A stretch of 64,000 bases of DNA from an uncultured Bifidobacteriaceae bacterium (GCA_964446605.1 CAYUPN010000005.1:5039-69038), one strand, 5' to 3'; shown: positions 10,874 through 34,135, numbered from the stretch's first letter. Notes: a model not told the origin generated them from the sequence alone. Made by a program: numbers and translations.

Positions 10874-10879
10874 CGAACT

Positions 10880-11986: not shown

Positions 11987-12045
11987 CAAGACTCACGCCG
12001 GCAGAACCAGCGTCGTACTGGCCGGCCGCGTTCAGGTCGTCGCGC

Positions 12046-13188: not shown

Positions 13189-13200
13189 CGGGCGCGGGTG

Positions 13201-14944: not shown

Positions 14945-15018
14945 TGGCTGGGAGGCAGGGATTCGAACCCCGATACCCTGGTCCAGAGCCAGGTGTCCTA
15001 CCGTTGAACGACCTCCCA
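14945..15018 (-). tRNA. tRNA-Gln (CTG)
   Basis: Reverse complement folds as a cloverleaf: anticodon arm CCTGG-CTCTGGA-CCAGG, T-loop GGTTCGAATCC, encoded CCA. Confidence 0.96.
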
Positions 15019-15209
15019 GCAAGGCCGGTCGGACCGGAGGGGAAGGATCAGTTTAACCCACGAGGCTGAAACCGGCAAGGTCGGAGCCCGGCCAGACGCT
15101 GGATCCCGGCTCGAGGTGTGCCCGCGAAAAGGGCGCGCGTTACTCTGGTACGAGTGTATCCGCACGTTCGTCCGCAGGCGCAGCAGACGGGCGCGGGCAG
15201 AGGGGCGAC

Positions 15210-15839: not shown

Positions 15840-15937
15840 GCCGGATCGGAGGTCCGCCGGAAGGCGGGCCCGACAGGCCCGCCGCTACAGCGACGCCATG
15901 GGGTGGAACGAGCTATGCAGTTGCTGCCGGCTGAGCC

Positions 15938-16726
15938 GTGCGCACACTGCTGATCTGCCATCAGAACAATCGACTGGACGCCGACATCATGCCGCGATGG
16001 CTGGCGTCGTTCTCCACGCTGACGGGCGTCGTCTCGATCGCGGACACGCCCGGCGGGCTGTGGCGCCGCATGCGGCGCGAGCTGCGCCGCGTCGGCCCGG
16101 TCCGGCTGCTGGACGTGATGGCGTTCCGCCTGTATTACGCGATGACGCTCGCGAACGCGGATCGCCGCTGGGAGGACGCGCAGCTGCGCGACCTCGGCGC
16201 ACGCTACACGCCTGTGAACGGCGCCGTTCCACGCCTGGAAACGACCTCCCCGAACACGTCCGACGTCGAGGCCTTCATCCGCCGCGCCGCTCCCGACATC
16301 GTCATCGCACGCTGCAAGTTCCTGCTGAAGGAGGCGATCTTCTCGATACCGCGCGACGGGACGTTCGTCATCCATCCGGGCATCTGCCCGGAGTACCGCA
16401 ACGCGCACGGCTGCTTCTGGGCGCTGGCGGAGCGTGACACCGGGCGCGTCGGCGCGACGTTGCTGCGGATCGACCGCGGCATCGACACGGGCCCGGTGTT
16501 CGGCTACTTCCACGCCGCGATCGACGAAGCCGCCGAATCACACATCCGCATCCAGTCGCGCGTCGTCTACGACAACCTCGACCCGATCGCCGAACGGCTG
16601 CGCGCCGTCCATGCCGGCACGGCGACGCCCGTCGAGACGAACGGCCGACCATCCGCCGTGTGGGGACAGCCCTGGCTGACGAAGCACCTGCGGTGGAAGC
16701 GCCTCGCACGCGGGAGCGTCACATGA
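15938..16726 (+). CDS. formyltransferase domain protein
   Basis: IHPGICPEYRNAHGCFWAL, GATL..ID.GIDTGP. Confidence 0.82.
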   Translation: MRTLLICHQNNRLDADIMPRWLASFSTLTGVVSIADTPGGLWRRMRRELRRVGPVRLLDVMAFRLYYAMTLANADRRWEDAQLRDLGARYTPVNGAVPRLETTSPNTSDVEAFIRRAAPDIVIARCKFLLKEAIFSIPRDGTFVIHPGICPEYRNAHGCFWALAERDTGRVGATLLRIDRGIDTGPVFGYFHAAIDEAAESHIRIQSRVVYDNLDPIAERLRAVHAGTATPVETNGRPSAVWGQPWLTKHLRWKRLARGSVT

Positions 16727-17511
16727 GAGCGCTCGCGCTGATGTATCACGACGTGTTCGACGAGGCCGGACCCGACTCGACCGGGATGCCGGGACCCGCC
16801 GCGGCGCGGTACAAGCTCGACCGGAATGCCTTCGCCGCACACGTGCGCGCGCTCGCGTCCGCCTCGACGCGGCTGAACGACGTCACGCTGCTGCGCGAGC
16901 ACGCCTCATCTGATCCACCGGTCGCGATTACGTTCGACGATGGGGGCGTGAGCGCGAGGACGGTGATTGCCGACATGCTCGAGGAGGCGGCGTGGCGGGG
17001 ACACTTCCTGGTGACCGCCGGATGGGTGGGGCGGCCGACGTTCCTCAGCCCGCCGCAGATCCGCGAACTCCGCAGCCGCGGCCACGTCATCGGGTCGCAT
17101 TCGTTCTCCCACCCGACGCGCATGTCGGCCTGCACACCCGCGCAGCTCGTGCGCGAGTGGACGGACAGCGTGAAGCTGCTGTCGGACATCCTCGGCGAGC
17201 CGGTGCGCGTCGCGTCTGTGCCGGGCGGCTACTACGCGCGGCACGTCGCCGAGCCGCTCGCCGGCCTCGGCGTCACGTCGCTCTTCACGTCGGAGCCAAC
17301 CACTCGGTGCTGGGACGTGAACGGGTGCACGGTGCTGGGACGGTTCACGGTGTGGCGACACACGCCGGTCGAGTCCGTGGCGGCGCTGGCCACGGGGCGG
17401 CTGCGGCCGCGGATGGCGCAGGCGGTGGCGTGGAACGCGAGAAGGGTTGCGAAGGTGGTGGGAGGGGAGAGGTATCTGGCGTTGCAGCGGAGGATTTTCG
17501 GGGAGGCGTGA
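16723..17511 (+). CDS. polysaccharide deacetylase (CE4/NodB) family protein
   Basis: LMYHDV, ITFDDG, IGSHSFSHP, SVPGG; ATGA overlap with the upstream gene. Confidence 0.87.
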   Translation: MRALALMYHDVFDEAGPDSTGMPGPAAARYKLDRNAFAAHVRALASASTRLNDVTLLREHASSDPPVAITFDDGGVSARTVIADMLEEAAWRGHFLVTAGWVGRPTFLSPPQIRELRSRGHVIGSHSFSHPTRMSACTPAQLVREWTDSVKLLSDILGEPVRVASVPGGYYARHVAEPLAGLGVTSLFTSEPTTRCWDVNGCTVLGRFTVWRHTPVESVAALATGRLRPRMAQAVAWNARRVAKVVGGERYLALQRRIFGEA

Positions 17512-17523
17512 CGGGCGATCTCA

Positions 17524-17560
17524 CAGGCCTTGGGCTTCAGGCTTCAGGCCTTGGGCTCGG
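17524..17560. repeat. short imperfect intergenic tandem repeat (CAGGCCTTGGGCT x2 separated by TCAGGCT)
   Basis: Read directly; lies between convergent genes. Confidence 0.55.
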
Positions 17561-17627
17561 GTCGGCCTTGCGGCTACAACCAGCTGCTCTCAGAAGCGAC
17601 ATTCACTGTCGCGCTGATGCCAGGTGA

Positions 17628-17654
17628 ATGGCCGAACTGAAGTTCGGCCCTACG
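17628..17654. repeat. GTAG-type REP palindrome, copy 1
   Basis: atggccgaactgaagttcggccctacg (GGCCGAACT/AGTTCGGCC hairpin plus CTAC); identical 27-mer at 55720-55746. Confidence 0.8.
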
Positions 17655-19110
17655 ACGCTTCCAGGAACGCTGCCAAACGTTCCAGCCGTTCGACGCCGCG
17701 TCCCTTTCCAATCAGCACCAGCGTCTCGAAGAGGCCCGGGCTGACCGCCTTGCCGGTCAGCGCGATCCGCGTCGCGTGGATGAGCGTGCCGGCCTTGATG
17801 CCGGCGCGTTCGGCGATCTCGCGCAGGACGCGCTCGGTCGACGCCTCGTCGAACGGCTCGAGCGTGCGATACGCGTTCGCCAGCTCCCGCAGGTGCGCTC
17901 CAAGACCGGGCGCCTTGAGGTGCTTCGCGACGGCGGACTCATCATAGGACTGCACGTCACCGAGGAACGGCACCAGCTGCGGCGCGAAGTCGCCGAGCCG
18001 CTTCGCGCGCGGGACGAGGAGCGACAGGACGCGCAGGAACCAGTCGCGCCGCGGACCGGTCAGATCATCCGACCAGAGATCCGCCGCCTCGAGCTCCGGG
18101 CGCACGCGCGCAATCAGATCGTCGGGCGCCAGCCGCGCCAGGTGCTGCGCGTTGAACCACTCGAGCTTCTCGGGATTGAAGACGGCATTGCCGCCGCTGA
18201 TGCCCTCGAGCGTGAAGCGCGCGACGAGTTCGTCGCGCGTGAACAGCTCCTCGTCGGTCCCGGGCGACCACCCGAGCAGCGCGAGGAAGTTGACCATCGC
18301 CTCGGACAGGTAGCCCTGCCGCTGGTACTCGGTCACCGACGTCGCACCGTGCCGCTTGCTCAGCCGCTTCTTGTCGGGGCCGAGGATCAGCGGGACATGG
18401 GCGAACTGCGGCACAGCAGCGCCAAACGCGCGATAGAGCAGGATCTGCTTCGGCGTGTTCGAGATGTGATCGTCACCCCGGACCACGTGCGTGATCCGCA
18501 TCTCCACATCGTCGCAGACGACGGAGAGCTGGTACGTGGGCTGGCCGTCGGAGCGCAGGAGGACGAAGTCCTCGACGGTCGCGTGGTCGATGGTGATCGG
18601 CCCGTGCACCAGGTCCTCGAACGTCGTCTCGCCCTCCGGCACGCGCATGCGAACCGCACGGGGCGCGCCTTCCGCTTCGAGCTTCGCAATTTCACCGGCG
18701 CTCAACGACAGGCAACGCCGGTCGTAGATCCACCCTTCGCCGCGTGATTCGGCGGCACTGCGCTCCTGCTGCAGCCGCTCGACGGAGCAGTAGCAGTGAT
18801 ACGCGAGCCCGCGCTGGACGAGCTCCGCCGCTCGCGCGCGATGCCGGTCGAACCGTTCGGACTGGAAGTACGGGCCGTGCTCACCGCCGACGTCGGGCCC
18901 TTCGTCCCAGTCGAGCCCGAGCCAGCGCATGCCGTCGACGATGCCGCTGACCATCTCCCAGGAGGAGCGCTCGGCGTCGGTGTCTTCGATACGGAGGACG
19001 AACACGCCCCCGTGGCGCCGTGCGAACAGCCAGTTGAAGAGCGCCGTGCGGGCGCCGCCGACATGCAGATAGCCGGTCGGGGATGGAGCGAAGCGGACGC
19101 GAACTGTCAT
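17650..19110 (-). CDS. gltX: glutamate--tRNA ligase
   Basis: VRFAPSPTGYLHVGG, LRIEDTD, THVVRGDDHISNTPKQ, RLSKRHG, SPGLFE. Confidence 0.97.
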   Translation of the reverse strand: MTVRVRFAPSPTGYLHVGGARTALFNWLFARRHGGVFVLRIEDTDAERSSWEMVSGIVDGMRWLGLDWDEGPDVGGEHGPYFQSERFDRHRARAAELVQRGLAYHCYCSVERLQQERSAAESRGEGWIYDRRCLSLSAGEIAKLEAEGAPRAVRMRVPEGETTFEDLVHGPITIDHATVEDFVLLRSDGQPTYQLSVVCDDVEMRITHVVRGDDHISNTPKQILLYRAFGAAVPQFAHVPLILGPDKKRLSKRHGATSVTEYQRQGYLSEAMVNFLALLGWSPGTDEELFTRDELVARFTLEGISGGNAVFNPEKLEWFNAQHLARLAPDDLIARVRPELEAADLWSDDLTGPRRDWFLRVLSLLVPRAKRLGDFAPQLVPFLGDVQSYDESAVAKHLKAPGLGAHLRELANAYRTLEPFDEASTERVLREIAERAGIKAGTLIHATRIALTGKAVSPGLFETLVLIGKGRGVERLERLAAFLEAS

Positions 19111-19224
19111 CGGAGATCGAGCGATCGGAGTGAACTGCCGGACGGCCCGGCGAGTGCGATGCGTCGACGTCCAGTATACCGTCCGCGTCCCGCGGCAGCC
19201 GGTCGGCCGGCAGCGCCCTCCCGT

Positions 19225-19596
19225 CTAGTTCCCGCAGTGCGGGCACTTCGCGGCAGCCTGCAGCCGCTTGTTGCCGCAGTGCGCGCACCTCACCAGCTCG
19301 CCCTGCGGACGCGAGAACAGATAGACGACGATCCCGATGACCGGAACGAGGAAGACGAAGATCATCCAGACCACGGCGCCGTCCAGGCCGCGCGCCTTGG
19401 CGTCCCTCGCCACCCAGACGAGCAGGGCAATCTGGATCGCGAGCAGGACCAGCGGGATCACGAGGAATGTGCCACAGCCGAGGCACCCGAGCACCGCGGC
19501 GGCCGCGTCCTCGTCCGAGCGCGATCGGCGCTGGGCGTACAGGTGGGCGTGCGAGAGCAGGAGCGTAGCCGACGCGCAACTCAGGAAACGGGGCAA
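19225..19596 (-). CDS. small membrane protein (PLDc_N-like TM pair) with C-terminal zinc ribbon
   Basis: WVARDAKARG...W...V.IVVYL; CAHCG...CPHCG. Confidence 0.7.
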   Translation of the reverse strand: MPRFLSCASATLLLSHAHLYAQRRSRSDEDAAAAVLGCLGCGTFLVIPLVLLAIQIALLVWVARDAKARGLDGAVVWMIFVFLVPVIGIVVYLFSRPQGELVRCAHCGNKRLQAAAKCPHCGN

Positions 19597-19803
19597 GGGT
19601 CCTCCACAGGGGCAGATCGGCCGGTACGGGTGTCAGAGACCCGTACCCACGGCCGCAAGCCGGACGTTCGCGGCGTCAGCCAGCTCAGCCGTAAGGCGGC
19701 GATTCTTGATCCAGGGGGGCGCCGGATGCAACCGGCAGAATTCCGGCGGGCTTACCGGGAAGTTCGGGGATCCCTGGGCTACCTGCCCAGGCGTGGAGGG
19801 AAC

Positions 19804-19897
19804 TGGCGGTGAGGCAGGGATTCGAACCCTGGGTACAGGTTTAAGCCCGTACAACGGTTTAGCAAACCGCCGCTTTCGGCCACTCAGCCACCTCACC
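19804..19897 (-). tRNA. tRNA-Ser (GCT)
   Basis: GGTGAGG acceptor stem, anticodon loop TTGCTAA, long variable arm, GGTTCGAATCC, CCA end. Confidence 0.96.
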
Positions 19898-19984
19898 GCA
19901 CGGAGCTAACTATTGTCGCACAAGGACTTGCGAATTTCAGCCGTTCGATCCGGATCGGCGATCCTGCTCGATCGTCCCTGTCGT

Positions 19985-20128
19985 GGCGTCGAAACGCCTG
20001 ACGGCCTCGGAAGGCACCGAACCATATTGTATCGCTCGAACACGCTCCGGGTCTCGTGCCAGGTTATCCGCATCGCCATGCCCGGATTCCCGGCGCGGAC
20101 GATTGCGCAGCGCCGTTCTGCGGATCGC
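19985..20128 (-). pseudogene. frameshifted C-terminal remnant of a tyrosine recombinase/integrase
   Basis: Across frameshifts: IRRTALRN / VRAGNPGMAMRITWHETRSVFERYNMV / EAVRRFD, resembling the HDxRRT.VRN..RAG....AM..TGH.TRSVFDRYNIV box II region. Confidence 0.75.
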
Positions 20129-20161
20129 CCTTCGCTGCCTGCACTTCGAGCCGCCCACGTG

Positions 20162-20848
20162 TCATCGGGAACGTGCGGCCTTCGCCGTTCCCACATGGCG
20201 ACGGAATATCGCGCGTATGAGCAATGCCAACGCGGGCAGCGCCAGCGCACCTGCGAAGGCCACCATGAAACCCGCGTCGACGGCGGCGGCGCCCATCGCG
20301 GCGTACCAGGCTGACACGGCCACGTTCGCGGTGCTCACGGCCACGAATACGTGGCCGAACGGCACGCGCAATGCTCCAGCCGAGATCACCGACGCCTCCG
20401 CCAGCACGGGAACCGGGCGGAAGAGCACGAGCGACAGCACACCATGAGCCTGCAGTGTCGCTTCGGCACGCGCGATTTCGTCAGGCGCGACGAGGGCGGT
20501 CGCTGCCGGCCGGCCATACCTGTGGCCGAAGAGGTAACCTCCCGAGCACCCCAGAGTCATCCCGACCGCGGATGCAACGGTTCCCCAGAAGAAGCCAAGC
20601 AGCGTGCCCGCGGCGGTGCTCACGATGCTGGATGGCACGGGAAGGAAGATGTCGCTCGCGAGAAGCGCGACGACCGCCATGCCGGTCAGCGATCGCGAAC
20701 GGCCAGGGGCCAGCGCACCCGTCGACACGTCGAACATGGCGTCCTCGAACATGACGAACGGTCCGAGGATCAGGCCCAGCAGCAGTGCAACGAGAATCGC
20801 CCATCCCTTGAAACGGGCGCGCGCTGGCCGGGATGGAGTCGACGACAT
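20162..20848 (-). CDS. VTT/DedA (TVP38, SNARE-associated) family membrane protein
   Basis: DIFLPVPSS....AAG.LLG, GY.FG, FRPVPVLAE...AG. Confidence 0.82.
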   Translation of the reverse strand: MSSTPSRPARARFKGWAILVALLLGLILGPFVMFEDAMFDVSTGALAPGRSRSLTGMAVVALLASDIFLPVPSSIVSTAAGTLLGFFWGTVASAVGMTLGCSGGYLFGHRYGRPAATALVAPDEIARAEATLQAHGVLSLVLFRPVPVLAEASVISAGALRVPFGHVFVAVSTANVAVSAWYAAMGAAAVDAGFMVAFAGALALPALALLIRAIFRRHVGTAKAARSR

Positions 20849-20863
20849 GGCCGGGTGACGTGA

Positions 20864-22957
20864 CTACATGTTCAGGTTGCACCACCGCACGAGCAACTCG
20901 CGCTTGCCGGCGGACAGCTCGCGCGTGATCGGCATGTAGAGCGTGGAGTTCCAGAAGTTCGGGTCCGTGAACTGGATCATGTTGTTGGCGAATGCCTTGA
21001 CCTTCTCCGGATCCTGCGGCGCGTCGTTCGGTCCCCACGGGATGAACGTGGACATGATCGGATAGAGGAGCGAGAAGTAGCAGAAGACCTCGGAGTAGAT
21101 GAACGGCCAGTTGTTGATCTGTTCGTCGGTATAGCTGCTGTAGTCGTCGGTCGGCAGAATGCGCACGACGGCGTAGAACTCGTTGTCCCACGCGAAGTTC
21201 GGAGCCGCCGGGGGCACGTTGGCGTCGCGGAAGCGGATGGCACTCGTGCCGGGACGGATCGCGGTCAACGTCAGCGTGAGCACGCCGCCGGCGGGCACGA
21301 CGACCGATTCGGTCATCGTCGGCACGGTCTGCGGTCCACCACCGTAGTAGCGCAGGAGGTACGATGTGTTCGGGAGCGCCGTCGCGCCCGCCACGCTGAA
21401 GTACGGCCCCGTCGAGCCCGGCGGCGTGCCCGGCAGCGGCACCGGCACCATCGGCTTGTCGGGATTGATGTAGTCCTTCTGGCACATCCAGTGCTCGAGA
21501 ATGACCGTCGTGGGCGTCTGCGCCAACACCCCCTTCCTGAATACCTTGATCGTGATCGTCGCGGAGCCAGGCAGCGGTGGCTCGCCGACCTGCGGGATCG
21601 CCTCCTGGAAGTACACCGCACGGTCGTCGGTCTGAATGTCGATGTCGGGCACTTCGGCCAGCAGCGTCGTGGCGGGTGACAGCCCCTGAATGGCCAGCGT
21701 GCCGGTGGCGATGTCCTGCTGGATCTCCGCCAGGTTCGGATTCGACGCGTAGCCGATCTCCACGAGGCCGCCACCCGACTCGTAGGTCTGTTGATCGTTG
21801 GGGATCGAACCGATCGTGATCGGTGTTCCACCGGATGCCGGTACGACGACCAGGTTCAACGTGCCCAGCGACAGCTTCTCGTTGGTGTTGACGTTGCACT
21901 CCGGGAACGTGCTGATCGCGTCGAGGGTCACCAGCGAGTTGGTGGCGTCAACGTTGGCGAGGGCTTCGCCGAGCGCGATCGTGCTGGCGGTCACTGCCTG
22001 GCCGCCGCAGGTGGCGCCTGCGGTTGAGAACTGCTTCTGCACGTAGAGCTTGCGGCCGGGGGGCGCGCTCAGCATGTCGTCCGGCTGAAGCACGCCGATG
22101 GTGCCGAGCATCTTGCCGACGTACGGGTTCGGCGAGTACACCCCCTTCGCATAGTCTGCGTACAACTCGTCGGGAGTGGTCTGGTAGATCGCGTCGTAGA
22201 AACAGTAGCGGATGGTCAGGCCCGCGCCAGCGGCGACCGCCGCCGCCAAATCGTCGAGCGCGGGGGACGTGACGCCCGACGGGTTGATCTTGAGGCCGGG
22301 GCCGTTCTGCACCGAGCCGATGAAGATCGCCGACACCATCTGGAAGCCAATCGCGTCGGGATCGACGTTCTTGTACGGGTTGATGAAGTACGAGAATGCC
22401 CGGTTGTTCTGCTGCGCATCGATCAACACGGTCGTGCCGTCCGCGGCGATTACCTGGAACCCTGCGGAGAAGATCTGGGTGGTGATGAGGGCGAGCGGAT
22501 CGACGTCCACCATCACGGCGTTCGACGGCGGACCACCGAAGAACACGTTGCCGACAATCTGCACGGTCGCGCCGTAGAGCGGATCCGTCGCCGGAACCGT
22601 GACGCCGGGACTCGCCCAGATGGTGTTCACCGTGGCCGACTCGAAGCGGGTCGCGTGGTCGCCGTAGTAGTTCCAATGCGCCTGCTGACCGTACGGTCCG
22701 CCCTCGGAGGCCGGCAGCCCGGTCATCAGCCCCATCAGCCATGCGCGCGCCAGCGCCGAGTCGGCCGGGCCGCCATACGGCAACGTCTGCTGCCCCGCCG
22801 GGTACTGCACTTGCGCCCCGGTTATCGGCGTCATCGTCGGGTTGAACGTCAACGTGTCGATATTGAACACATCGGCGAAGTCCTGGTTGTTCGCCGTCGA
22901 CGGGTTGGCGTACACCCCGCCCATGAAATGGAAGACGGGACGGCTCAAATAGCTCAT
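20864..22957 (-). CDS. VioB/StaD/RebD-related protein (about 697 aa) lacking the C-terminal ferritin-like domain
   Basis: Start re-picked at MSYLSRPVFHFMG...NPSTANN (compare VioB MSILDFPRIHFRG...PTANRD, from memory); WNYYGD; C-terminal W..IY..V..YF.LLYP.M...YMPITRELSAGKRELL..W. Confidence 0.65.
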   Translation of the reverse strand: MSYLSRPVFHFMGGVYANPSTANNQDFADVFNIDTLTFNPTMTPITGAQVQYPAGQQTLPYGGPADSALARAWLMGLMTGLPASEGGPYGQQAHWNYYGDHATRFESATVNTIWASPGVTVPATDPLYGATVQIVGNVFFGGPPSNAVMVDVDPLALITTQIFSAGFQVIAADGTTVLIDAQQNNRAFSYFINPYKNVDPDAIGFQMVSAIFIGSVQNGPGLKINPSGVTSPALDDLAAAVAAGAGLTIRYCFYDAIYQTTPDELYADYAKGVYSPNPYVGKMLGTIGVLQPDDMLSAPPGRKLYVQKQFSTAGATCGGQAVTASTIALGEALANVDATNSLVTLDAISTFPECNVNTNEKLSLGTLNLVVVPASGGTPITIGSIPNDQQTYESGGGLVEIGYASNPNLAEIQQDIATGTLAIQGLSPATTLLAEVPDIDIQTDDRAVYFQEAIPQVGEPPLPGSATITIKVFRKGVLAQTPTTVILEHWMCQKDYINPDKPMVPVPLPGTPPGSTGPYFSVAGATALPNTSYLLRYYGGGPQTVPTMTESVVVPAGGVLTLTLTAIRPGTSAIRFRDANVPPAAPNFAWDNEFYAVVRILPTDDYSSYTDEQINNWPFIYSEVFCYFSLLYPIMSTFIPWGPNDAPQDPEKVKAFANNMIQFTDPNFWNSTLYMPITRELSAGKRELLVRWCNLNM

Positions 22958-24234
22958 GGTCGGGGCCCGTTGCTGCTGGTGGTGCTCTTGGAGTGGGCGT
23001 TGCGGAACGACCACGCGTAGTCCATCTGCTTGAACGTGGCGTTGGGATATTGCTGCCTGGCCAGCGCCTGGAAGTCGACCTTGCCCGTGTAACCCTCGAC
23101 GTTGCCGTTGGCGGTATTCCAGAACGTCAACCGCAGCGTCTGCGGCGACCCGATACTGCTCAGCGAGTGACACGTCATGCACGACGATGAAGATTGGAAG
23201 TACGTTTCAGCCTGTGTGTTGGCAAACAGCGTCGGCTGGCCCTTGTCGTCGGTGAATGCCGTCTGCCATCCCTGGATGGCGTAGTACTGCCACTTGGTGC
23301 CAGCCAGGGCGGCCTGAAACGTCGTGTTGTAGGCGGCTGCAGCGGGGTTGAACGTCTGATTCGGCCCGACCGCAGCGCCGGGCTGGCCTTCGTAGAACTG
23401 GAACGTCGACGTGGGGTTGTCCTGCTGCTCGAAGGTCACCCACAGCCAGTCGGGCAGCACCTTGCTGATGATGTGAAGCCCGGTCAGGCCCACCTTCGAC
23501 AACATCGCCTTGCCGTTCTCGTCGGTGTAGATCCCGTACGAGGTCCAGTAGCGGCTGTCGTCCACGCCCGGTTCGAGGATCCGCCAGGCCGCCTTGACCT
23601 CGATGGCCGCGGTGGGAAAGCTGAATGTGTAGGTCGGATCGTCGAGCGCCGCTCCCTGGCCTTCGAGGTTGAACAACTCGAAGCCGGCGGGATTGTTGAC
23701 GACGTATTCGAACGCATCGCGATTCATGCGCACGTCGTACTGCACAATCCTGGCGGCGCTGTCGACGATCTGCCTGCCATCGATCATCGTCGACTCCGAC
23801 AGGTAGTGCAGGTACGGCGAGTCGACGGAGCCGATGGCGGCAGCGGCCCTCGCCCATTCCGGCGACTCCGAGGCCAGCATGTACGGAGCCTTCCACGGCG
23901 CCGGCCTGGAGCCGTCCTTCAGATAGACCTCAGCGGTGCTCTTGAAGGTTTCCCAGACCGTTGGACCTGGCGCGCCGATCTGCCTGTCGAAGTCGGGCAC
24001 GCCCCGTTCGTTGGCCAGTGCCGGCCACGACAGGAACACGAACAGCGTCCACCCGAACTCGCCCGGATCCTGAAGCGCGGCGGACGCCCCGCCGGCCCTG
24101 GGATCGACGGCCTCGATCGCCGGCTCGCGCAACGGCGCGGCCGGAGCGGCGGGAGGAGCCTGGCAGGCTCCGGCCCACGCCGCGACGGATGCCGCAAGGA
24201 CCAGTACGGCGAGGCCTCGACGTGCTGCGTGCAT
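22954..24234 (-). CDS. predicted lipoprotein with a single C-terminal CxxCH (c-type cytochrome)
   Basis: AGGAG RBS; MHAARRGLAVLVLAASVAAWAGAC lipobox-like; LSWPA, VWETFK, YDVRMN, IEVKAAW, GLHIISK, WVTFEQ.DN, SSSCMTCH, DYAW. Confidence 0.72.
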   Translation of the reverse strand: MHAARRGLAVLVLAASVAAWAGACQAPPAAPAAPLREPAIEAVDPRAGGASAALQDPGEFGWTLFVFLSWPALANERGVPDFDRQIGAPGPTVWETFKSTAEVYLKDGSRPAPWKAPYMLASESPEWARAAAAIGSVDSPYLHYLSESTMIDGRQIVDSAARIVQYDVRMNRDAFEYVVNNPAGFELFNLEGQGAALDDPTYTFSFPTAAIEVKAAWRILEPGVDDSRYWTSYGIYTDENGKAMLSKVGLTGLHIISKVLPDWLWVTFEQQDNPTSTFQFYEGQPGAAVGPNQTFNPAAAAYNTTFQAALAGTKWQYYAIQGWQTAFTDDKGQPTLFANTQAETYFQSSSSCMTCHSLSSIGSPQTLRLTFWNTANGNVEGYTGKVDFQALARQQYPNATFKQMDYAWSFRNAHSKSTTSSNGPRP

Positions 24235-24253
24235 CGCTACTCCTGAAACGCGA

Positions 24254-27200
24254 CTACGCTGATTCCGTACACGCAGCGGCGACGCTCGTTGCGCCCCATG
24301 CTGCCCAGGCTTCGCGAGCGGCGTCGCGGTGCCGTTTCGCTTCATCGCCGTGGCCTTGCTGCGCCGCCATCTCGGCCCATCGTTCATGGGCCATGCCGAT
24401 AACCTGCACGTATCCCGTTTCCGTCGCGGCGGCGATCGCGGCCGCATAGTGCGCGGCGGCGGCCGCGGAGCGACCGGCTACCCGTTCGCGCTCGCCCGCC
24501 AGCAGCCGATGCTTGTGCGCGAAGTTGTCGGGGCATCGCGCCGCCCACGACGCGAACCTCCTTTCCGCCTTCTTCAAGACAGCGCCCGCGCCGGGACTGC
24601 CGGCGGCAGCGGCGATGAGCGCGTCGAGAAACACGTGCTCGGTGCTGTGGAGCATGCCGGCGGACGCCTTCAGATAGCTCGCCGACACCGCGGCGAGCTC
24701 GGCGGCGGCGGCGTATTGCTTCCGCAAGTACAACGCGAGCATCTTGTCGACGAAGTAGTAGTGGGCGAAGTGCTTCGACCCGAACCCGTCGAGCTCCGCG
24801 ACGAACGCCGTCTCATCGAACGTCTCATCGTCAAACGAAGCGGGGCCGGCCGTGGCCCCCTTGAGGCAGGCAATCGTCTGCCGCACGGCCCGCACGCAGC
24901 CAAGCGTCTCGCGCTGCTGCGCTCGCGCCAGCCAATCCGCGTATTGGCCGGTCAACGCATGGATGTCGTCGAGCGGCGCGCCCCGCATCAACTGGCTTTG
25001 CACCGTGCCGGCGCAGGCACAACCGGTGTGAAACAGGTCGCCGCTCTCCAACCCGGCGGCGTGCGCCTGCTGCCACAGGGCCTCGGCGTCGGTCGCCGGT
25101 CGCAGCCACGACGTGCCGAAATAGCCGACCACGAAGCGGACCTCGGCACGCTGCATGCGGTTGTCGTAGCGCTCGACCAGATCCAGCGCGACACGGCCGT
25201 ACTCGTAACCCGTTTCGTACCGCCCGAGGACGCCGCCGAGGAAGATCGCCCCGAACACCATGAACGGCACCGCCGACTCGCCGATGTTGCCGTGGCGCAG
25301 CGAGAGCGTGACGGCCTTCGTCGAGATCGCGACGCACAGCTCGGGACGAACCTGGAACGCCGACTTCGCCGTCGCCGAGATGATGCGCACCGCCCAGCGG
25401 TGCTGTTCGTCGGTCATCTCCGGCAACTGCGAGATGTCGGCGATGCGCCGGCGGCCAAGCTGCCATCGCGCTCGCGCCAGATCCAGGAGGAAAGCGGGTG
25501 GCACGAAGCTGGCCGGCAGACGCACGCCAAAGCCGGCCGCCGCCTTGCGGCCGGTGTCGTACGCATCGCGGAAGCGACCGGTGTCGGCGTAGAAGTGGAT
25601 CAGGCGCTCGAGGACTTCCGCCTTCGCCACGGTCGAGCCCGCCAGCTCCGCCGCCCGCGTGAGATATTCCTCGGCACGCTCGAAGGCCAGCACTTCGACC
25701 GCGGCGGCACCCGCCTTTGCGTAGTAGGTCGCGGCTCGCGCCGGCTCGGAGTGCGCGAGGTGCACGGCGATCTTCTGCGGTTCGGCCACGCCGCTCGCCT
25801 CGAGGGCGCCGGCCAGCCGCTTGTGGCAATCGAGCCGGGTGCCGGGGTCCACATGGGCAGCCACGCTCTCGCGCACGCGATCGTGATAGCACTCGATCTG
25901 ATCGTCGACGCTCGGACCGGTGGTCCGAACGAAGTGACCGGTGCGGAGCGCGATCACGACCTGTTGGGGAAACGAGTCGAACCCGGCGGCCAATGCCGCG
26001 TCGCGCACCCGCACGGGTTGTCCGGCGACGGCGATCGTCTCGAGCAGCCGCCGTGGGGCGGCGTCCAGCAGCTGCACGCGCGACCACAACACGGCGTCGA
26101 GATCGAGGCCAGACGCGCGGTCGAGATTCAGCCCGGCGCGCACGTGACGCGCCAGCTCGATGATGAAGAACGCGTTGCCGCCGGACTCCTTGAGGATGCG
26201 CTCCGCGATCTCCCTGGTATCCGGCCGGGCCGAGCCAAGCAGGGCCAGCGCCAGCTGCAGGGTCTCGCCCTCGGCCATCGCCGGTACGTCGACGACCTGC
26301 CACTCGACGCCGGCCTGCTGCTCGCGTTCGGCGGCCACCAGAGCATCGAGACAGGCGCTCCGGCCCGCCGATTCCGTGCGGTGCGCCAGCAGCACCAATG
26401 CGCGCGGAATCCGCGACGCGCGCAACAGGTCGACCAGCAGGTGCGCCGAATCGACATCGCCCCACTGCAGGTCATCGATCGACAGCACCAGCGGACGCGA
26501 TTCGGCAATGCGGCCGAGCAATTCACCGAGGGCCCGGAAGCCGAGACTCCGCTGCTCACGCAGGTCGGCGCCTTGACCCGTCGTCTCGCCCGTCTCGCGG
26601 ACGCCGGGGAGCCCCTTCATCACCGGGAACAGGCGCGCGAGACCGGCGATGCTGGACGGCAGCACCTGCGCGCGCTCGGCGGCCGGCAGGCCGGCCAGAT
26701 AGTTGTAGAGGGAGTCGAGCAGGCTGTCCCATGCCTTGTACGGGACGGACTCCTGCTCGTAACAGCGACCGGTCAGCACGACGACGTCGGGACGCTGCGA
26801 CACCGCCTCGAGAAAATGCGAGACGAGCGTGCTCTTGCCTGCACCTGATCGCCCGTGGACGCGGCACACCACGACGGTGCCGCGCGCGCGATCGAAGGCG
26901 GCACTCAGGCGACCGAGCTGTTCGTGCCGGCCGACAAACGGCGTCTCGCTCTCCCACGTTGCGGCGGCAAGGGGTCCTGCGGTCGCAGCGACGCCGCTCA
27001 ACGCGGCCAGGATCACGTTGCCCGACGGCCGCGCATCGGGGTCGCGCGACAGCAGCGCCATGCACAACGCATCGAGATCCGCGGGCACGTTGCGCACAAG
27101 GACCGACGGGCGAACCGGATCGCCGGTCTTCTTCGCCTCGAGCACGTCCCGAGCGGATCCAGCGAAGGGCCGCTGCCCGGTCAGCGCTTCGTACAACATC

Positions 27201-28036
27201 ACGCCCACCGCGTACCAGTCGCTCGCGGTGCCGAGCGGCTGGGCCGAGGCTTGCTCCGGCGACATGTAGTGCACGGTGCCGGCGATGTAGTCCGGGTGGA
27301 CGTAGCCGCTGCGATGGCTGGCCGGGCCGAAACTGGCGCGCCCCGGACTGCCGGACCTGTGGCCATGCGCCACCGACGGGCCGCTGGTCAGATCGGCAAT
27401 CAGGCCGAAGTCGAGCAGGCGGACCCGTCCGTCCGGTGTGACCAGGACGTTTTCGGGCTTGAGGTCACGATGCAGCAAGCCGGCCGAATGGAGCGCCATG
27501 ACGCCCTCGACCAGCTGCTGCATCGCGGCCCGCAGTTTCTGTTCGTCGTGGATTGCCGTGAGTGCGGCGGCAGGTCCAGGCGCATGCGAGGACTCGAGCG
27601 ACCCGGCATCCAGTCCGGTCACCGTGGCCTGATCGGCCCCGGCCGGTGCCGACGTTTCCGCGCCAGCGTCCAGCGCATCAGCGCCGGCGTCCTGGTTCCG
27701 CACCCACCGCCGGAAGTTCACGGCATCGTCGAGCAGCTCCATCGTGAAGTGCCAACGGCCATCGACGAGAAAGAGCTCGTAAAGCGAGAGCAGGTTGCGG
27801 TGGACCAGATCGGTGAGCGCGCGAAACTCCTGCTTGAAGAGGTAAATCGTTTCGGGGTCGGCGCGGCGGAGGACTTTGAGCGCCACGCGTTCGCCACGCT
27901 CGTGGTCGAACACGTCGTAGACCATTCCCATGCCGCCCGCGCCGATGAAGCGGTTGACTGAGAAACGAGCGGTTCCGGTGAATTCGTGGCCTGGTTCTGG
28001 CACCCGCCCACCGTCCTGCGGCGGAGATACTACCAC
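24254..28036 (-). CDS. Ser/Thr kinase + AAA/STAND-like ATPase + helical-repeat protein
   Basis: IGAGGMGMVY, HRDLKPEN, DFGL, GTVHYMSPEQ; FVGR..L; Walker A GRSGAGKS; Walker B LSIDDLQWGD; HDRVRE. Confidence 0.92.
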   Translation of the reverse strand: MVVSPPQDGGRVPEPGHEFTGTARFSVNRFIGAGGMGMVYDVFDHERGERVALKVLRRADPETIYLFKQEFRALTDLVHRNLLSLYELFLVDGRWHFTMELLDDAVNFRRWVRNQDAGADALDAGAETSAPAGADQATVTGLDAGSLESSHAPGPAAALTAIHDEQKLRAAMQQLVEGVMALHSAGLLHRDLKPENVLVTPDGRVRLLDFGLIADLTSGPSVAHGHRSGSPGRASFGPASHRSGYVHPDYIAGTVHYMSPEQASAQPLGTASDWYAVGVMLYEALTGQRPFAGSARDVLEAKKTGDPVRPSVLVRNVPADLDALCMALLSRDPDARPSGNVILAALSGVAATAGPLAAATWESETPFVGRHEQLGRLSAAFDRARGTVVVCRVHGRSGAGKSTLVSHFLEAVSQRPDVVVLTGRCYEQESVPYKAWDSLLDSLYNYLAGLPAAERAQVLPSSIAGLARLFPVMKGLPGVRETGETTGQGADLREQRSLGFRALGELLGRIAESRPLVLSIDDLQWGDVDSAHLLVDLLRASRIPRALVLLAHRTESAGRSACLDALVAAEREQQAGVEWQVVDVPAMAEGETLQLALALLGSARPDTREIAERILKESGGNAFFIIELARHVRAGLNLDRASGLDLDAVLWSRVQLLDAAPRRLLETIAVAGQPVRVRDAALAAGFDSFPQQVVIALRTGHFVRTTGPSVDDQIECYHDRVRESVAAHVDPGTRLDCHKRLAGALEASGVAEPQKIAVHLAHSEPARAATYYAKAGAAAVEVLAFERAEEYLTRAAELAGSTVAKAEVLERLIHFYADTGRFRDAYDTGRKAAAGFGVRLPASFVPPAFLLDLARARWQLGRRRIADISQLPEMTDEQHRWAVRIISATAKSAFQVRPELCVAISTKAVTLSLRHGNIGESAVPFMVFGAIFLGGVLGRYETGYEYGRVALDLVERYDNRMQRAEVRFVVGYFGTSWLRPATDAEALWQQAHAAGLESGDLFHTGCACAGTVQSQLMRGAPLDDIHALTGQYADWLARAQQRETLGCVRAVRQTIACLKGATAGPASFDDETFDETAFVAELDGFGSKHFAHYYFVDKMLALYLRKQYAAAAELAAVSASYLKASAGMLHSTEHVFLDALIAAAAGSPGAGAVLKKAERRFASWAARCPDNFAHKHRLLAGERERVAGRSAAAAAHYAAAIAAATETGYVQVIGMAHERWAEMAAQQGHGDEAKRHRDAAREAWAAWGATSVAAACTESA

Positions 28037-28205
28037 TTGGCCCGGCCAGTGAGGTGCGCTGTGCGGGAGACGTCGCGATCATTTGGCGGTTCACGGGGAG
28101 ACGGCGCGTCGCACCTGTCGAGGGCGTCAGCCGGCCGAAATATGACCTCTTCGGCTCCCCGGGTGTCGGTTGCGGCCGTCGCGCGGCGTATGCCAGCATG
28201 TCGCC

Positions 28206-29363
28206 GTGCGAATCCTCGTCGCATCCGGGATTTTCCCGCCCGATCCCGGCGGCCCCAGCACGCATCTCGGCCAACTGATTCCGGAACTCGTCGCGCGCGG
28301 GCACGAGGTGCGGGCGGTCGTCTTCGGACATGCCGCCGGCGGCCCGCCCGGCTGCGTAGCAACTCGCATCCCCCTGGACCTGCCGCTCCCGGCACGTGCG
28401 CTGCGCTACGCGCGCGCGTACTGGCGTGAAGCGCGACACGCCGACCGCGTCTACGTCGCGACGATGGGACTGCCGCGCCCGCCGTGCCGGCCTCCGGTGA
28501 TCCTGCGGGTGCCCGGCGACCCGGCATGGGAGCGCGCGGTCAATCGCGGCCTCGTCCCTCCGGGCACGGACATCGACGCGTTCCAGACCGCAAGGTCCCG
28601 GGCACGCGTGGCATGCCTCAAGTGGGCGCGCGCGGTCGAAGCGCAACGCGCCGACCGCGTGCTCGTGCCGAGCGACTATCTGCGCCGGATGGTCGCGGCG
28701 TGGAACGTCGACGCTGAGAAGATCGCGGTCGTGTACAGCGCGGTCGATGACGGGCGCGGCGACGGGCGCGCGATCGATCGGCATGCAGCCCGGGAAGCGC
28801 TGGGATGGGACGCCGCGGGCCAGTACGTCGTGACAGCAGCCCGGCTGACCGCCTGGAAGGGCGTGGATCACCTGATCGACGCCGTGGCCCGCGTGCCGGG
28901 CGTGACGCTCGTTGTTGCGGGCGACGGCCCCCAACGCCAATCCCTGGCGGCGCGCGCCGCCTCCAGCGGCGCGGCGGTCCGCTTCACGGGCATGCTGCCC
29001 CGCGAGCGGCTCGCCACGCACATCAGTGCCGCCGACTACGTTGCGCTCTACTCCGGCTACGAGGGGTTCTCGCACCTGCTCCTGGAAGCGCTCGCCGCCG
29101 GGACGCCGGTGATCGCGAGCGCGCGCGGCGGCAATCCCGAGATCGTCCGCGACCGCGTCAACGGATTCCTGGTCACCCATCCCGATTCCGACGCGCTCGC
29201 CGCCGCAATCAGCCGGGCATTCGCCGGGGGTACGCGAGCCCGGCTCGCGGCGCGAACCGGGGACGGCCTCGCGCGCTTCCGCGCGTCGGCGGCGATCCCC
29301 GCCGTCGCGGACGCCATCGAAACCGCCGGGCCGCGAGCGGCTGCCGTGCCATGCGCGTCCTGA
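28206..29363 (+). CDS. GT4 glycosyltransferase
   Basis: ILVASGIFPPDPGGP, RL..WKG, EGFSHLLLE (EX7E). Confidence 0.88.
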   Translation: MRILVASGIFPPDPGGPSTHLGQLIPELVARGHEVRAVVFGHAAGGPPGCVATRIPLDLPLPARALRYARAYWREARHADRVYVATMGLPRPPCRPPVILRVPGDPAWERAVNRGLVPPGTDIDAFQTARSRARVACLKWARAVEAQRADRVLVPSDYLRRMVAAWNVDAEKIAVVYSAVDDGRGDGRAIDRHAAREALGWDAAGQYVVTAARLTAWKGVDHLIDAVARVPGVTLVVAGDGPQRQSLAARAASSGAAVRFTGMLPRERLATHISAADYVALYSGYEGFSHLLLEALAAGTPVIASARGGNPEIVRDRVNGFLVTHPDSDALAAAISRAFAGGTRARLAARTGDGLARFRASAAIPAVADAIETAGPRAAAVPCAS

Positions 29364-30406
29364 TGCTGACGCAGGCAATCGACCCGGACGATGCCGTGCT
29401 TGGCAGCACGGCGGGGTGGGCCGCGGCGCTCGCGCGCCACGTGGAGTCCGTCGACGTCCTCTGCCTGCGCTCCGGAGGGACGAAGCCGGACGGCGTCGGC
29501 GTCTGGGCCGTCGGCGCGCGCGGCGAGTCAGGCCGCTTCACCCGCTTCATCGCCTTCGAACGCACGCTCGCACGCCTCGCGGCGCGGACCGACGTCGTCT
29601 TCACGCACATGGTGCCGCGATACACGTGCCTCGCCGCTCCCATGGCGATGGCGGGCCGTCTGCCGCTCCTGCTCTGGTACACGCATCGCCACGACTCGTT
29701 CGAGCTCCGCGCCGCCACCGCGCTGAGCCGCGTCGTCGCCACGGCGGTTCCGGAAAGCTTTCCCTTCGCCACGCCGAAGCTGCGCGTGCTCGGCCACGGA
29801 GTGGACACCGGCGTCTTCTCGCCGGCGCCCGTCGCCTCGCCGCCCTCGGCCCCGACAATCGTGTTCGTCGGCCGCCTGGCGCCGATCAAGCATCAGGCCA
29901 CGCTCGTGGAGGCGCTGGCCCGGATCGGCATCGCGCACGACGGCGTCACGGCGGTGTTCATCGGGCCGGAGCACGACGGCGGCGCCTACCGGCGCGAGCT
30001 CCACCGGCTCGCCGAGCGATTCGGATTGCACCAGCGCGTACACTTCGCGGGGCCGCTGCCGCCCGCCAGGGTCGTGGACTGGTACCGCCGCGCGACCGTT
30101 GCCGTGAACCTGAGCCCCGATGGCCTGTTCGACAAGGCGGCGCTCGAGAGCATGGTGGTCGGCACCCCGACGGTCGTCGCGGGCGCAGCGTTCGATCCTC
30201 TGCTCGGGCAGGCCGCATGGCTCCGCGTTCGCGCGCCGGACGACGCGGACGCGCTGGCCGACGTGCTCCGGCAGCTGCTGGCCATGCCGGACGGCGAACG
30301 GCGCGCGCTGGCGATGGACGTCCGGCAGCGCGCGGTCGATGCTCACGCACTCGATCGCTTCATCCTGCGGCTCGTCGCGCTGATGGAGTCGGTCCGCCGG
30401 CAGTGA
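29351..30406 (+). CDS. GT4 glycosyltransferase
   Basis: MRVLMLTQAID, GHGVD, VGRLAPIK, GLFDKAALESM. Confidence 0.85.
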   Translation: MRVLMLTQAIDPDDAVLGSTAGWAAALARHVESVDVLCLRSGGTKPDGVGVWAVGARGESGRFTRFIAFERTLARLAARTDVVFTHMVPRYTCLAAPMAMAGRLPLLLWYTHRHDSFELRAATALSRVVATAVPESFPFATPKLRVLGHGVDTGVFSPAPVASPPSAPTIVFVGRLAPIKHQATLVEALARIGIAHDGVTAVFIGPEHDGGAYRRELHRLAERFGLHQRVHFAGPLPPARVVDWYRRATVAVNLSPDGLFDKAALESMVVGTPTVVAGAAFDPLLGQAAWLRVRAPDDADALADVLRQLLAMPDGERRALAMDVRQRAVDAHALDRFILRLVALMESVRRQ

Positions 30407-30407
30407 C

Positions 30408-31607
30408 ATGGTCGTCATCTACCTTGCCAACGCGCGGCTTCCAACCGAGAAGGCGAACGGCCTGCAGATTGTCGAGAACTGCGATGCCCTGGCGCGCGCG
30501 GGAGCCCGAGTCACCTTGGTTGTCCCGCGGCGCGCGGGCACCAGGCGATCGGCGGACGATGTCCGGACGCACTATGGGCTGCGGCCCACGTTCACGCTTC
30601 GGTTCGTTCCGTGCGTCGATCTGTTCCCGCTCGGGCGCTGGTGCGCCGGCATCGCGGCTCGCGTGCTGCTCCTGACGTTCACGCTGGCGGCCCTGTTCGC
30701 CCTCCGGCGCGAGACGGCGGATGTCTACTTCAGCCGCGATCCGCTGCCGCTCCTCCTGCTCGGCTTCATCAGGCCTCGCGCGGCGCTGGCGTACGAGGCA
30801 CATACGCTGGCGCCCGGCGGGCCCGGCAGGTGGCTCCAGCGCGCCTGCGTCCGCCGCGTCGGCACTGTCGTCGCGATGACGGACCGTCTGGCGGCCGACC
30901 TCCAGCGCGGCGGCGCCGGAGAGGTCGTCGTCCTCCGTGACGGCTACCGCGTCGAGCGCTTCGCGGATCTCCCCTCGCGCGACGAGGCGCGTGCGGCAGT
31001 CGGCGTTCCACGGGACGTGTTCTGCGCCGGCTACCTCGGGCAGCTCGAGACGCTTGGCGCGTCGAAGGGGCTCGAGCTGGTCGTCGATGCGATCGCGCGC
31101 CTCCGCGACCCCCGCCTCCACCTGTGCCTCGCCGGCGGACCCGGCAATCCGGCCGCGGCCCTGCGGGCCCGGTGGCAGGACGCCGGGCTTCGACCCGATG
31201 CGTTCCACTGGCTCGGGGACCGTCCGCCTTCGGAAGCCGCCCGTCTGCTTCCGGCATTCGACGCCTGCCTGCTGCCGCTGCCCGCGACGCCGCACTTCGC
31301 CCTCTACGCGTCGCCGTTGAAGCTCTTCGAGTACATGGCGGCGGGCCGTCCCATCGTCGCCGCGGCACTGCCGTCGATCGCGGAAGTCGTCACATCCGGG
31401 GAATCGGCGCTGCTGGTTCCGGCCGGCGACGCGGCGGCCCTGGCCCGCGCGATTGCGGACCTGCGGGACGATCCGTCGCTCGGTGTGCGGCTGGGGGCTG
31501 TCGCGCGGAATGCGGCGCGCGCTTTCACCTGGGACGTGCGGGCGCGGAAGCTGCTGACTGTGCTGGCTGGGCGGCCGGCGGCGCGGATCGCGCGCCCGTC
31601 CGCGTGA
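30408..31607 (+). CDS. GT4 glycosyltransferase
   Basis: NARLPTEKANGLQI, SPLKLFEYMAAGRPIV. Confidence 0.88.
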   Translation: MVVIYLANARLPTEKANGLQIVENCDALARAGARVTLVVPRRAGTRRSADDVRTHYGLRPTFTLRFVPCVDLFPLGRWCAGIAARVLLLTFTLAALFALRRETADVYFSRDPLPLLLLGFIRPRAALAYEAHTLAPGGPGRWLQRACVRRVGTVVAMTDRLAADLQRGGAGEVVVLRDGYRVERFADLPSRDEARAAVGVPRDVFCAGYLGQLETLGASKGLELVVDAIARLRDPRLHLCLAGGPGNPAAALRARWQDAGLRPDAFHWLGDRPPSEAARLLPAFDACLLPLPATPHFALYASPLKLFEYMAAGRPIVAAALPSIAEVVTSGESALLVPAGDAAALARAIADLRDDPSLGVRLGAVARNAARAFTWDVRARKLLTVLAGRPAARIARPSA

Positions 31608-32907
31608 GCCACAGCACCCAGGCAATGCCGGCTGCCGTCAGCAGCGTGTAGCGAAGCGCGTGGAACCATGCGCCGCCCACCGCACCGGCGCCTGGAATGA
31701 GTGCGTAACCGACCGGCGCGGCGGCCGCAATGGAGAATGCCTGCAGGGCGATCCCGAACGACGGCCTCTCAATCGCGCGGAGCGCGGCGCCGATGCCGAC
31801 GCCCGCGCCGGTCGCGAGCGACTGCAGCGCGAGCGGGTACAGCGCCGGAATGGCCGGCGCGTACTCGGCGCCGGCCAGCCGCACGAGCACGGCCGGCCCG
31901 GCGAGCAGCATCCCTGCGGTCACAACCGCCCAGGCGGCGCCCATGCCGACGGTGACGCCGATGAACGTCCGGCGCGCGCCGTTCCATTCCTCGCCGGCCC
32001 GGAACGGCAGCAGCACCTCGAGATATCTCGCGAAGGCCGAGACCAGCGGATACGGCAGCGACATCGTGCGCAGCGCGGCGCTGAAGTAGCCGGCCGCATC
32101 CGGCCGCAGCACGCCGACGAGGAGCATCGGCAACTGGCTCCCGAGATTCGCCAGGTTCTTGTCGATGGCCAGAGCGAACCCCGCGGCGGTACGGCCGGCG
32201 CGGTCGGCCCTGCCCGCGCGGCGCAGCAGGTCCGCCCATGACGGCAGCGACAGGTCGACGCGCACCAGTCGCCCGTACGCGCGCGTTCCCCAGAGTGACG
32301 CCAGCACGCTCACGCTCACGTGGACGGCCGCGAGGCCCGCCAGCCCGAACCCCGCGAGCAGAACCGCGATCGTGCAGACGGCGGTCACGATCGCGCGGGA
32401 CGTTTCGACCCGGGCGAGACTCCGTGTCCGACCGCGCCCGTGCAGCACGAGGACGAGCAGATTGAACGGCAGGTCGAGGGCGAGCGGAAGGGCAAACCAG
32501 CGCGCCCAGAGGCCGGCGTCCGAGCGTCCGTACAGCCAGCCCGCGATCCACGGCGCGAACAGGAAGAACACCGACACGAGTGGAAGGCGAACGGCGGCCG
32601 CGGCGCGCAGGAAGCGGGCGAGGATCGCGGCAGCCCGCTCCGGCGCGCCTTCGCCGCGCGCCCTTGCCAACTCGGTCAACGCCAGACGGCTCGCGCCGCT
32701 CAGGTCGAAGAACCCGGCGGCTGCGGCGAGCGCCACGCTGATCGCATAGAGTCCCACCGCGTCCGGGCCGAGCACGCGCAACAGGACCAGGCTCGTGGCC
32801 GCCTGCATCGCAACCGTGACGGCCTGGCCAACCTGGAGCGGCAGGGCGCCGGCGATGGCGCCGTGCGCGCCAGCGGCACGGATGCGATCGAGCAGCGGCC
32901 GGATCAT
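31525..32907 (-). CDS. Wzx-like oligosaccharide flippase
   Basis: Many TM segments; RVLGPDAVGLY; AGYFSAA; LAGAEYAPA. Confidence 0.78.
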   Translation of the reverse strand: MIRPLLDRIRAAGAHGAIAGALPLQVGQAVTVAMQAATSLVLLRVLGPDAVGLYAISVALAAAAGFFDLSGASRLALTELARARGEGAPERAAAILARFLRAAAAVRLPLVSVFFLFAPWIAGWLYGRSDAGLWARWFALPLALDLPFNLLVLVLHGRGRTRSLARVETSRAIVTAVCTIAVLLAGFGLAGLAAVHVSVSVLASLWGTRAYGRLVRVDLSLPSWADLLRRAGRADRAGRTAAGFALAIDKNLANLGSQLPMLLVGVLRPDAAGYFSAALRTMSLPYPLVSAFARYLEVLLPFRAGEEWNGARRTFIGVTVGMGAAWAVVTAGMLLAGPAVLVRLAGAEYAPAIPALYPLALQSLATGAGVGIGAALRAIERPSFGIALQAFSIAAAAPVGYALIPGAGAVGGAWFHALRYTLLTAAGIAWVLWLTRTGARSAPPAAQPAQSAASAPARPR

Positions 32908-34028: not shown

Positions 34029-34135
34029 GCTAGCGCGGAGGGTGAAAGGCCATGCGGTATGATAAGCGGCCAACGCGGGAAGACATCCCGTCGATGCCGC
34101 GCGATCACGGTCGCGGCGCGGAGCGCAGTGCGCGG

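Follow-up and report, generated by a model that had tools for sequence, protein, structure and literature searches.

Iminophenyl-pyruvate dimer synthases of the VioB/StaD/RebD type (TIGR04492) are haem-dependent coupling enzymes. The accessible text of PMC9705886 states that VioB uses haem b and that its structure is not available, and a 2021 review, in its accessible part, gives the front half of VioB/StaD/RebD as structurally unknown. We examined a block of four genes at positions 20162-28036 of a 64,000-nucleotide stretch of high-GC DNA (GC 0.63-0.74) from an uncultured Bifidobacteriaceae bacterium, referred to below as the window, in which a protein related to this front half is encoded by a gene of its own. 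Judged by sequence comparison, the block is a genuine module, apparently spread by horizontal transfer, in which half of a VioB is combined with a putatively secreted haem protein and a large kinase that would serve as a switch. In the arrangement seen here, each of the four families is either unannotated or uncharacterised.

The four open reading frames (ORFs) lie on the minus strand. A STAND Ser/Thr kinase of 1260 amino acids (24254-28036) ends in a TAG stop codon, followed by a 19-nucleotide spacer (24235-24253) whose AGGAG ribosome-binding site, as read from the sequence, is 6 nucleotides before the ATG at 24234. This ATG opens the gene for a predicted exported mono-haem c protein of 426 amino acids (22954-24234), which shares an ATGA stop/start overlap at 22954-22957 with the gene for the half-VioB protein (697 amino acids, 20864-22957). 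After a 15-nucleotide gap comes a DedA/VTT-domain membrane protein of 228 amino acids (20162-20848). The sequence-only reading had described four co-oriented genes with precisely this gap, overlap and gap, and each of them can be read directly from the sequence. A promoter and terminator scan of the block was uninformative (0 promoter-like and 6 terminator-like sites, versus 0.7 and 4.6 in shuffled sequences). To place the block in a wider context, we scanned one genome per species. From the 284 confirmed stretches obtained, 58 loci (designated by L numbers) were retained, and locus counts were taken from profile searches of their six-frame translations. The arrangement is far beyond chance, because the haem-c/half-VioB gene pair recurs in 36 of these 58 related loci.

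The 697-residue protein matches the NCBIfam VioB model TIGR04492 with an E-value of 2.4e-16, residues 534-692 aligning to model positions 426-578 together with a second matching stretch, and the same model is matched by all 19 of 19 aligned family members. It scores 58.8 bits against a cut-off of 1250 for this model, below the level of a full-length VioB. The family as a whole spans positions 1 to ~590 of the 1003-position model, with coverage of 1-292 in L036 (E-value 2.9e-39), 426-578 in the window and 489-582 in L029. In certain relatives, an adjacent gene encodes a ferritin-like protein that carries PF12902 and covers the other part of the model (597-929 in L029, 666-938 in L036, 665-760 in L053). 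This complementary coverage shows that VioB is a fusion of an N-terminal module and a ferritin-like half, and the window protein is the N-terminal VioB module only. Unlike VioB, StaD and RebD, it is without the ferritin-like C-terminal half (model positions ~597-938); it matches no Pfam family, hence has no PF12902 domain in the same protein, and no PF12902 gene was found in its own genome, which is 99.56% complete. What the sequence-only reading called a VioB-like enzyme is thus related to VioB, as proposed, and corresponds to one module of it. A further difference from the described enzymes, which that reading had also pointed out, is that the 16 ORFs examined from 15057 to 34160 include no flavin tryptophan oxidase of the VioA type, no VioE and no P450.

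The start assigned to this protein is correct, because Met1 is invariant in 26 of 26 aligned homologues. The N-terminus is conserved from Met1 in both partner types, and the protein therefore should have no signal peptide, so that it is predicted to be cytoplasmic, like VioB. Residues invariant among 26 diverse members include W95, D151, M635, M675, R679 and R686. An AlphaFold2 model, with a predicted local distance difference test score (pLDDT) of 80.9, consists of a chain of beta-sandwich domains and a C-terminal helical domain. Searches of PDB sequences with the half-VioB and haem-protein profiles gave 0 matches at E ≤ 1 and at E ≤ 10. A word-indexed search found 47 homologues, all hypothetical, and an exhaustive profile search enlarged the family to 2166 representative clusters with E ≤ 0.001, 894 of which reach E ≤ 1e-30. 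Of these 2166 clusters, the best 150 are without exception stand-alone proteins of 488-803 amino acids, and a fused VioB is not among the matches listed; a word-indexed search for named VioB proteins, begun from the L036 protein, returned 4 matches, none of them named. In the literature, searched mostly at the level of listings, we found no paper on stand-alone proteins resembling the VioB N-terminal half or on the haem-c/half-VioB gene pair.

The 58 loci come from at least eight phyla (Acidobacteriota, Planctomycetota, Verrucomicrobiota, Myxococcota, Chloroflexota, Actinomycetota, Bacillota and Pseudomonadota, as assigned by record titles and tree labels). In the 36 loci with the gene pair, the CxxCH gene is directly upstream of the half-VioB gene on the same strand, with gaps of 3-304 nucleotides, so that the two central genes do recur together in other genomes, as the sequence-only reading required. 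A PF12902 ferritin-like gene adjoins the half-VioB gene instead in 13 loci, belonging to Actinomycetota, Chloroflexota and Bacillota, with one Myxococcota locus and one Acidobacteria-labelled locus. One locus (L056) has a weak relative of the CxxCH gene on the opposite strand, and neither partner is present in the remaining 8, three of which are incomplete (L033 is a fragment, and the contigs of L008 and L022 are cut). In L040, the ORF upstream of the half-VioB gene shows no similarity to the haem-protein profile. Apparent fusions of the haem-c and half-VioB genes in Myxococcota were rejected as artefacts of open upstream frames in high-GC DNA.

The uncharacterised ferritin-like/half-VioB pairs share with the window the half-VioB family and a tight coupling of the genes, and often a DedA gene of the window's subfamily follows directly downstream (L024, L027, L048, L050, L051, L053). 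They differ in that the partner is cytoplasmic and helical and in that a full-length STAND homologue is found near none of the 13 loci, in contrast to 24 of the 36 haem-c-type loci, two more of which are cut at contig ends. Their two genes come in the opposite order to the corresponding domains of VioB. On a quick tree of the family (60 rows, from ORFs covering at least 520 profile positions, L033 and L046 left out), the partner type changes at least three times and the phyla are interleaved. By this comparison, the half-VioB module appears to have repeatedly swapped a ferritin-like partner for a haem-c partner. Among the haem-c-type loci, the STAND gene precedes the pair in the same orientation in 14. 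It follows downstream on the opposite strand in 7 (6 Myxococcota loci and the acidobacterial L030), and in 3 Verrucomicrobiota loci it is downstream with a class III cyclase replacing the kinase, which makes 21 loci with a kinase as output domain and 3 with a cyclase. The conserved core consists of the STAND kinase, the exported haem-c protein and the half-VioB protein, with DedA or TonB-dependent receptors as accessory members. Two copies of the half-VioB gene were seen in tandem in L038, L044 and L047, the last of which also has two CxxCH genes, and on opposite strands in L056.

The 426-residue protein carries a haem-c attachment motif, CMTCH, at residues 352-356 (23167-23181, minus strand). 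The C..CH pattern is present in 20 of 20 cluster members, and C352, C355 and H356 are invariant in the alignment, as is K214. All 20 homologues also begin with a hydrophobic signal sequence, several with a Cys lipobox, as judged by inspection and not by a signal-peptide predictor; we therefore take the protein as exported by prediction, and probably a lipoprotein. No match to Pfam or NCBIfam above threshold was found for it, nor any match to PF16694 at E ≤ 0.1. Its AlphaFold2 model (pLDDT 80.8) is closest in fold to cytochrome c'-beta/P460. A VIA all-against-representatives comparison of this predicted model gave five top matches that are all c'-beta or P460 proteins, with Z scores of 7.6-6.3, in the middling range, and the next, unrelated row at 4.7; these matches extend over whole chains, with 125-138 residues aligned to chains of 135-158 residues. 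The top rows of a Foldseek search were likewise cytochromes P460 and c'-beta (best E-value 3.8e-3), and in a neighbouring Atlas cluster (score 0.89), which serves as a lead only, PF16694 occurs on 12% of the members. Like proteins of the P460/c'-beta superfamily, the window protein has a single CXXCH with a proximal His near the C-terminus and a predicted export signal, and its model suggests their beta-sheet fold. It differs from them in length (426 versus ~135-190 amino acids), with large insertions, and in the missing PF16694 match. Within the superfamily, P460 is marked by a haem-Lys cross-link and c'-beta by a hydrophobic residue at the equivalent place. According to the accessible text of PMC11928373, the c'-beta/P460 fold supports hydroxylamine oxidation, NO binding and peroxidase-like chemistry. 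The window's own genome encodes cytochrome c assembly genes. The membrane-anchored c-type cytochrome of the sequence-only reading is retained as a predicted exported CxxCH protein, with its fold now given as P460/c'-beta by prediction. The Bacillota locus L029 encodes a membrane protein similar to cytochrome bd subunit I and fused to a c-type cytochrome domain (L029:4044-5366), placed two genes ahead of its ferritin-like/half-VioB pair.

The kinase has Pkinase (E-value 3.7e-39) and AAA_16 ATPase (2.1e-23) matches in Pfam, followed by ~700 further residues that form a helical, sensor-like region. The motifs VALK, HRDLKPEN and DFG and a Walker A sequence, GRSGAGKST, can be read in its translation, and the protein looks active on this basis. 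Large STAND regulators that bear a kinase or cyclase head include the mycobacterial PknK-type and LAL-type regulators. With another such group, TOMM_kin_cyc (TIGR03903), the window kinase shares the combination of Pkinase, AAA_16 and helical repeats, residues 355-775 matching the model with an E-value of 2.2e-24. It differs from these regulators in that its scores are far below the family cut-offs, in that no DNA-binding domain was detected in it, and in its linkage to a haem-c/half-VioB pair in place of a known biosynthetic cluster. In L036, a LuxR-type STAND protein precedes the ferritin-type pair. GAF proteins were observed upstream of the kinase in 7 loci, PP2C phosphatases in L002 and L005, where FHA-GAF-PP2C or PP2C genes are adjacent, and a histidine kinase that binds cyclic nucleoside monophosphates (cNMP) in L048. 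In the three verrucomicrobial loci, a cNMP-binding TIR protein is beside the cyclase-STAND module (L007:5593-6588 and 10250-13345; L009:5491-6423 and 10301-13399; L012:10100-13261 and 14216-15055).

The DedA protein falls within the VTT family (PF09335, E-value 7.6e-16, 59.1 bits against a cut-off of 33.9), as does the undecaprenyl-phosphate transporter UptA. It scores 21.8 bits with the UptA model, whose cut-off is 250, and belongs to a distinct subfamily tied to the half-VioB gene. Its own genome, of 4.66 Mb, contains two DedA-like genes, the copy in the block and one distant paralogue. The same subfamily is present in 11 of the 58 loci, within 200 nucleotides downstream in 6. DedA, which the sequence-only reading had counted as a full member of a four-gene system, is thus a recurrent accessory gene and not part of the core. 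TonB-dependent receptors adjoin the pair in 7 loci, MetA-type outer-membrane channels are present in 4 and phospholipase-B-like genes in 3. In six Myxococcota loci (L028, L032, L034, L035, L039 and L042), a BadF/BcrA-type ATPase fused to DUF2229 is encoded upstream on the opposite strand, and in all of these except L039 an unannotated protein of ~616 amino acids adjoins the pair. S-Me-THD-like genes are found downstream in L035, L037 and L040.

To get a perspective on the history of the block, we examined its distribution and its flanks. The half-VioB gene is present in 2 of 151 sampled genomes of the order, one of them the window's own. The other carrier, G105, is of the same genus and has a divergent copy (L068, G105:C4:306000-325523) with 27-35% identity in the half-VioB protein and 46-57% in the kinase, its own CxxCH gene and a DedA fragment. 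The site of that copy, between tRNA-Gln and gltX, is across gltX from the window copy, and the chromosomal neighbourhood is therefore variable. L001, a relative at 95% identity, is 92.6% identical to the window at the nucleotide level over 7156 nucleotides from the kinase to the half-VioB gene and 89.7% identical over DedA, the homology stopping at the borders of the gene set, with unrelated flanks. In L001, a TonB-dependent receptor (L001:10099-12132) is inserted between the half-VioB gene and DedA, and a DAO-family FAD oxidoreductase gene (L001:1582-2805) is directly upstream of the kinase; both are absent from these positions in the window. The gene block has a GC content of 0.63-0.66, against 0.68-0.74 nearby. 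By these sequence features the module looks horizontally acquired, in line with the probable acquisition suggested by the sequence-only reading.

The same reading had placed an integrase remnant beside a tRNA-Ser at the end of the block. We confirmed tRNA-Ser(gct) with ARAGORN (19804-19897, minus strand); the integrase did not survive examination. The short ORF in question (19937-20158, minus strand) has no Pfam match even at E ≤ 10, and a tblastn search with it at E ≤ 10 was empty in 50,697 phage and 72,556 plasmid records. The recombinase-like motif at its C-terminus is in no other ORF of its own genome. We rejected it as an integrase or tyrosine recombinase remnant. Relative to the tRNA, the gene block is on the 5' side instead of at the 3' end. 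Between gltX (17650-19110) and tRNA-Ser, a small ORF (19225-19596) has a PLDc_N domain and a zinc-ribbon, and on the opposite strand immediately after the module, at 28170-34160, there are group-1 (GT4) glycosyltransferase genes and a polysaccharide flippase-like gene, probably an exopolysaccharide locus.

What the analysis shows is homology, a predicted fold, conserved linkage of the genes and a patchy distribution; how the cofactor is loaded, the topology, the class of substrate, the flow and its direction, and what the kinase does are inferences. The reading that we tentatively favour, at somewhat less than an even chance, takes the block as a mobile module for oxidative small-molecule chemistry related to that of VioB, regulated by the kinase and divided across the inner membrane. 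The cytoplasmic 697-residue protein would be the substrate-handling N-terminal module of VioB-type haem-dependent coupling enzymes, which in other lineages would work with the ferritin-like protein equivalent to the C-terminal half of VioB. In the window, this redox partner would have been exchanged for an exported mono-haem c protein of the c'-beta/P460 fold, located in the periplasm. A small metabolite, probably aromatic or nitrogenous, would be acted on by two proteins, one to each side of the membrane, and would be moved by DedA in the window or by a TonB-dependent receptor in relatives. The STAND kinase may sense a cytoplasmic ligand or the state of a protein and switch the module by phosphorylation; in some relatives, the STAND protein may signal through a cyclic nucleotide instead.

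Several observations weigh against this proposal. The two central proteins are predicted in different compartments despite their ATGA-overlapping genes, so that a VioB-like physical complex is unlikely unless the 697-residue protein is exported in an unusual manner; a complex prediction for residues 44-416 of the haem protein with residues 85-697 of the half-VioB protein scored 0.28, against a mark of 0.32, and was not used as evidence in either direction. No conserved substrate-supplying enzyme was found: flavin oxidase genes occur in only two of the loci, of the DAO type in L001 and of the Amino_oxidase family in L009. Across the 26 diverse half-VioB members there is no invariant His or Cys, and the whole 697-residue model matches only generic Ig-like/macroglobulin-like sandwiches, at residues ~435-603, with the N-terminal 430 residues barely tested; the argument for half-VioB catalysis is for these reasons one of VioB homology alone. 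The signalling neighbours (GAF, FHA-PP2C and cNMP-binding TIR proteins) fit a sensing or conflict role equally well.

One such role would be a redox- or gas-sensing signal-transduction module, in which the periplasmic c'-beta-like haem protein binds NO, CO, hydroxylamine or peroxide, the STAND protein turns its state into phosphorylation or a cyclic nucleotide, and the half-VioB protein is an adaptor or target, not an enzyme. The description of c'-beta cytochromes as ligand-binding proteins in the accessible text of PMC11928373 agrees with this, as do the exchange of kinase for cyclase as STAND output while the rest stays homologous and the GAF, PP2C and cNMP-binding histidine kinase genes found nearby. 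However, there is no conserved membrane-spanning protein to connect a haem protein in the periplasm with a STAND protein in the cytoplasm, the half-VioB protein also pairs with a cytoplasmic ferritin-like protein where there is no STAND gene, and a conserved protein of 600-700 amino acids is large for an adaptor. We regard this explanation as unlikely. A looser association, in which the pair alone forms a unit and the kinase and DedA are unrelated neighbours, seems quite unlikely. In its favour, DedA is missing from 47 of the 58 loci and STAND from 8 haem-c-type loci with sufficient flanks. Against it, the pair is found in four phyla together with full-length STAND homologues of 40-48% identity, the DedA subfamily of the window occurs beside either type of partner, the window and L001 have exactly this gene set in common (with the inserted TonB receptor in L001), and the spacings of 19, -4 and 15 nucleotides leave no room for internal promoters or terminators.

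A conflict or defence system, in which the STAND NTPase would respond to an invader or to damage of the envelope by triggering an effector, with the haem and half-VioB proteins as sensor or effector parts, is in our view improbable. It would suit the patchy, island-like distribution (two carriers in the sampled order and different flanks in L001), and the kinase domain does match defence-kinase models. The three verrucomicrobial loci, in which a cyclase-STAND is paired with a cNMP-binding TIR protein, also speak for it; we presume that they resemble the cyclase plus cNMP-TIR pairs of defence systems. However, PADLOC assigned no family to the haem, half-VioB or DedA proteins and gave only generic kinase-domain matches (mad6, PD-T4-6). 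The loci have no nuclease, protease or pore-forming domain in common. The TIR gene is confined to 3 of the 58, and the nearby TonB receptors and outer-membrane channels suggest substrate traffic. Very improbable, finally, is a surveillance module in which the STAND NTPase monitors the c-type cytochrome, alone or with the half-VioB protein, and in which envelope loss or infection brings the haem protein, or its unexported precursor, to the sensor and so fires the kinase or cyclase, together with a cNMP-activated TIR protein in some lineages. If true, it would be a prokaryotic parallel to the sensing of cytochrome c by APAF-1.

The front half of VioB-type enzymes is a large stand-alone family, with the 2166 representative clusters noted above and no Pfam model, and these enzymes can be seen as two modules, each of which is also found as a separate gene. 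The CxxCH protein would represent an unannotated, enlarged branch of the P460/c'-beta haem fold. The module provides a concrete handle on the role of the front half of VioB, StaD and RebD, and it points to a widespread redox module of soil bacteria.

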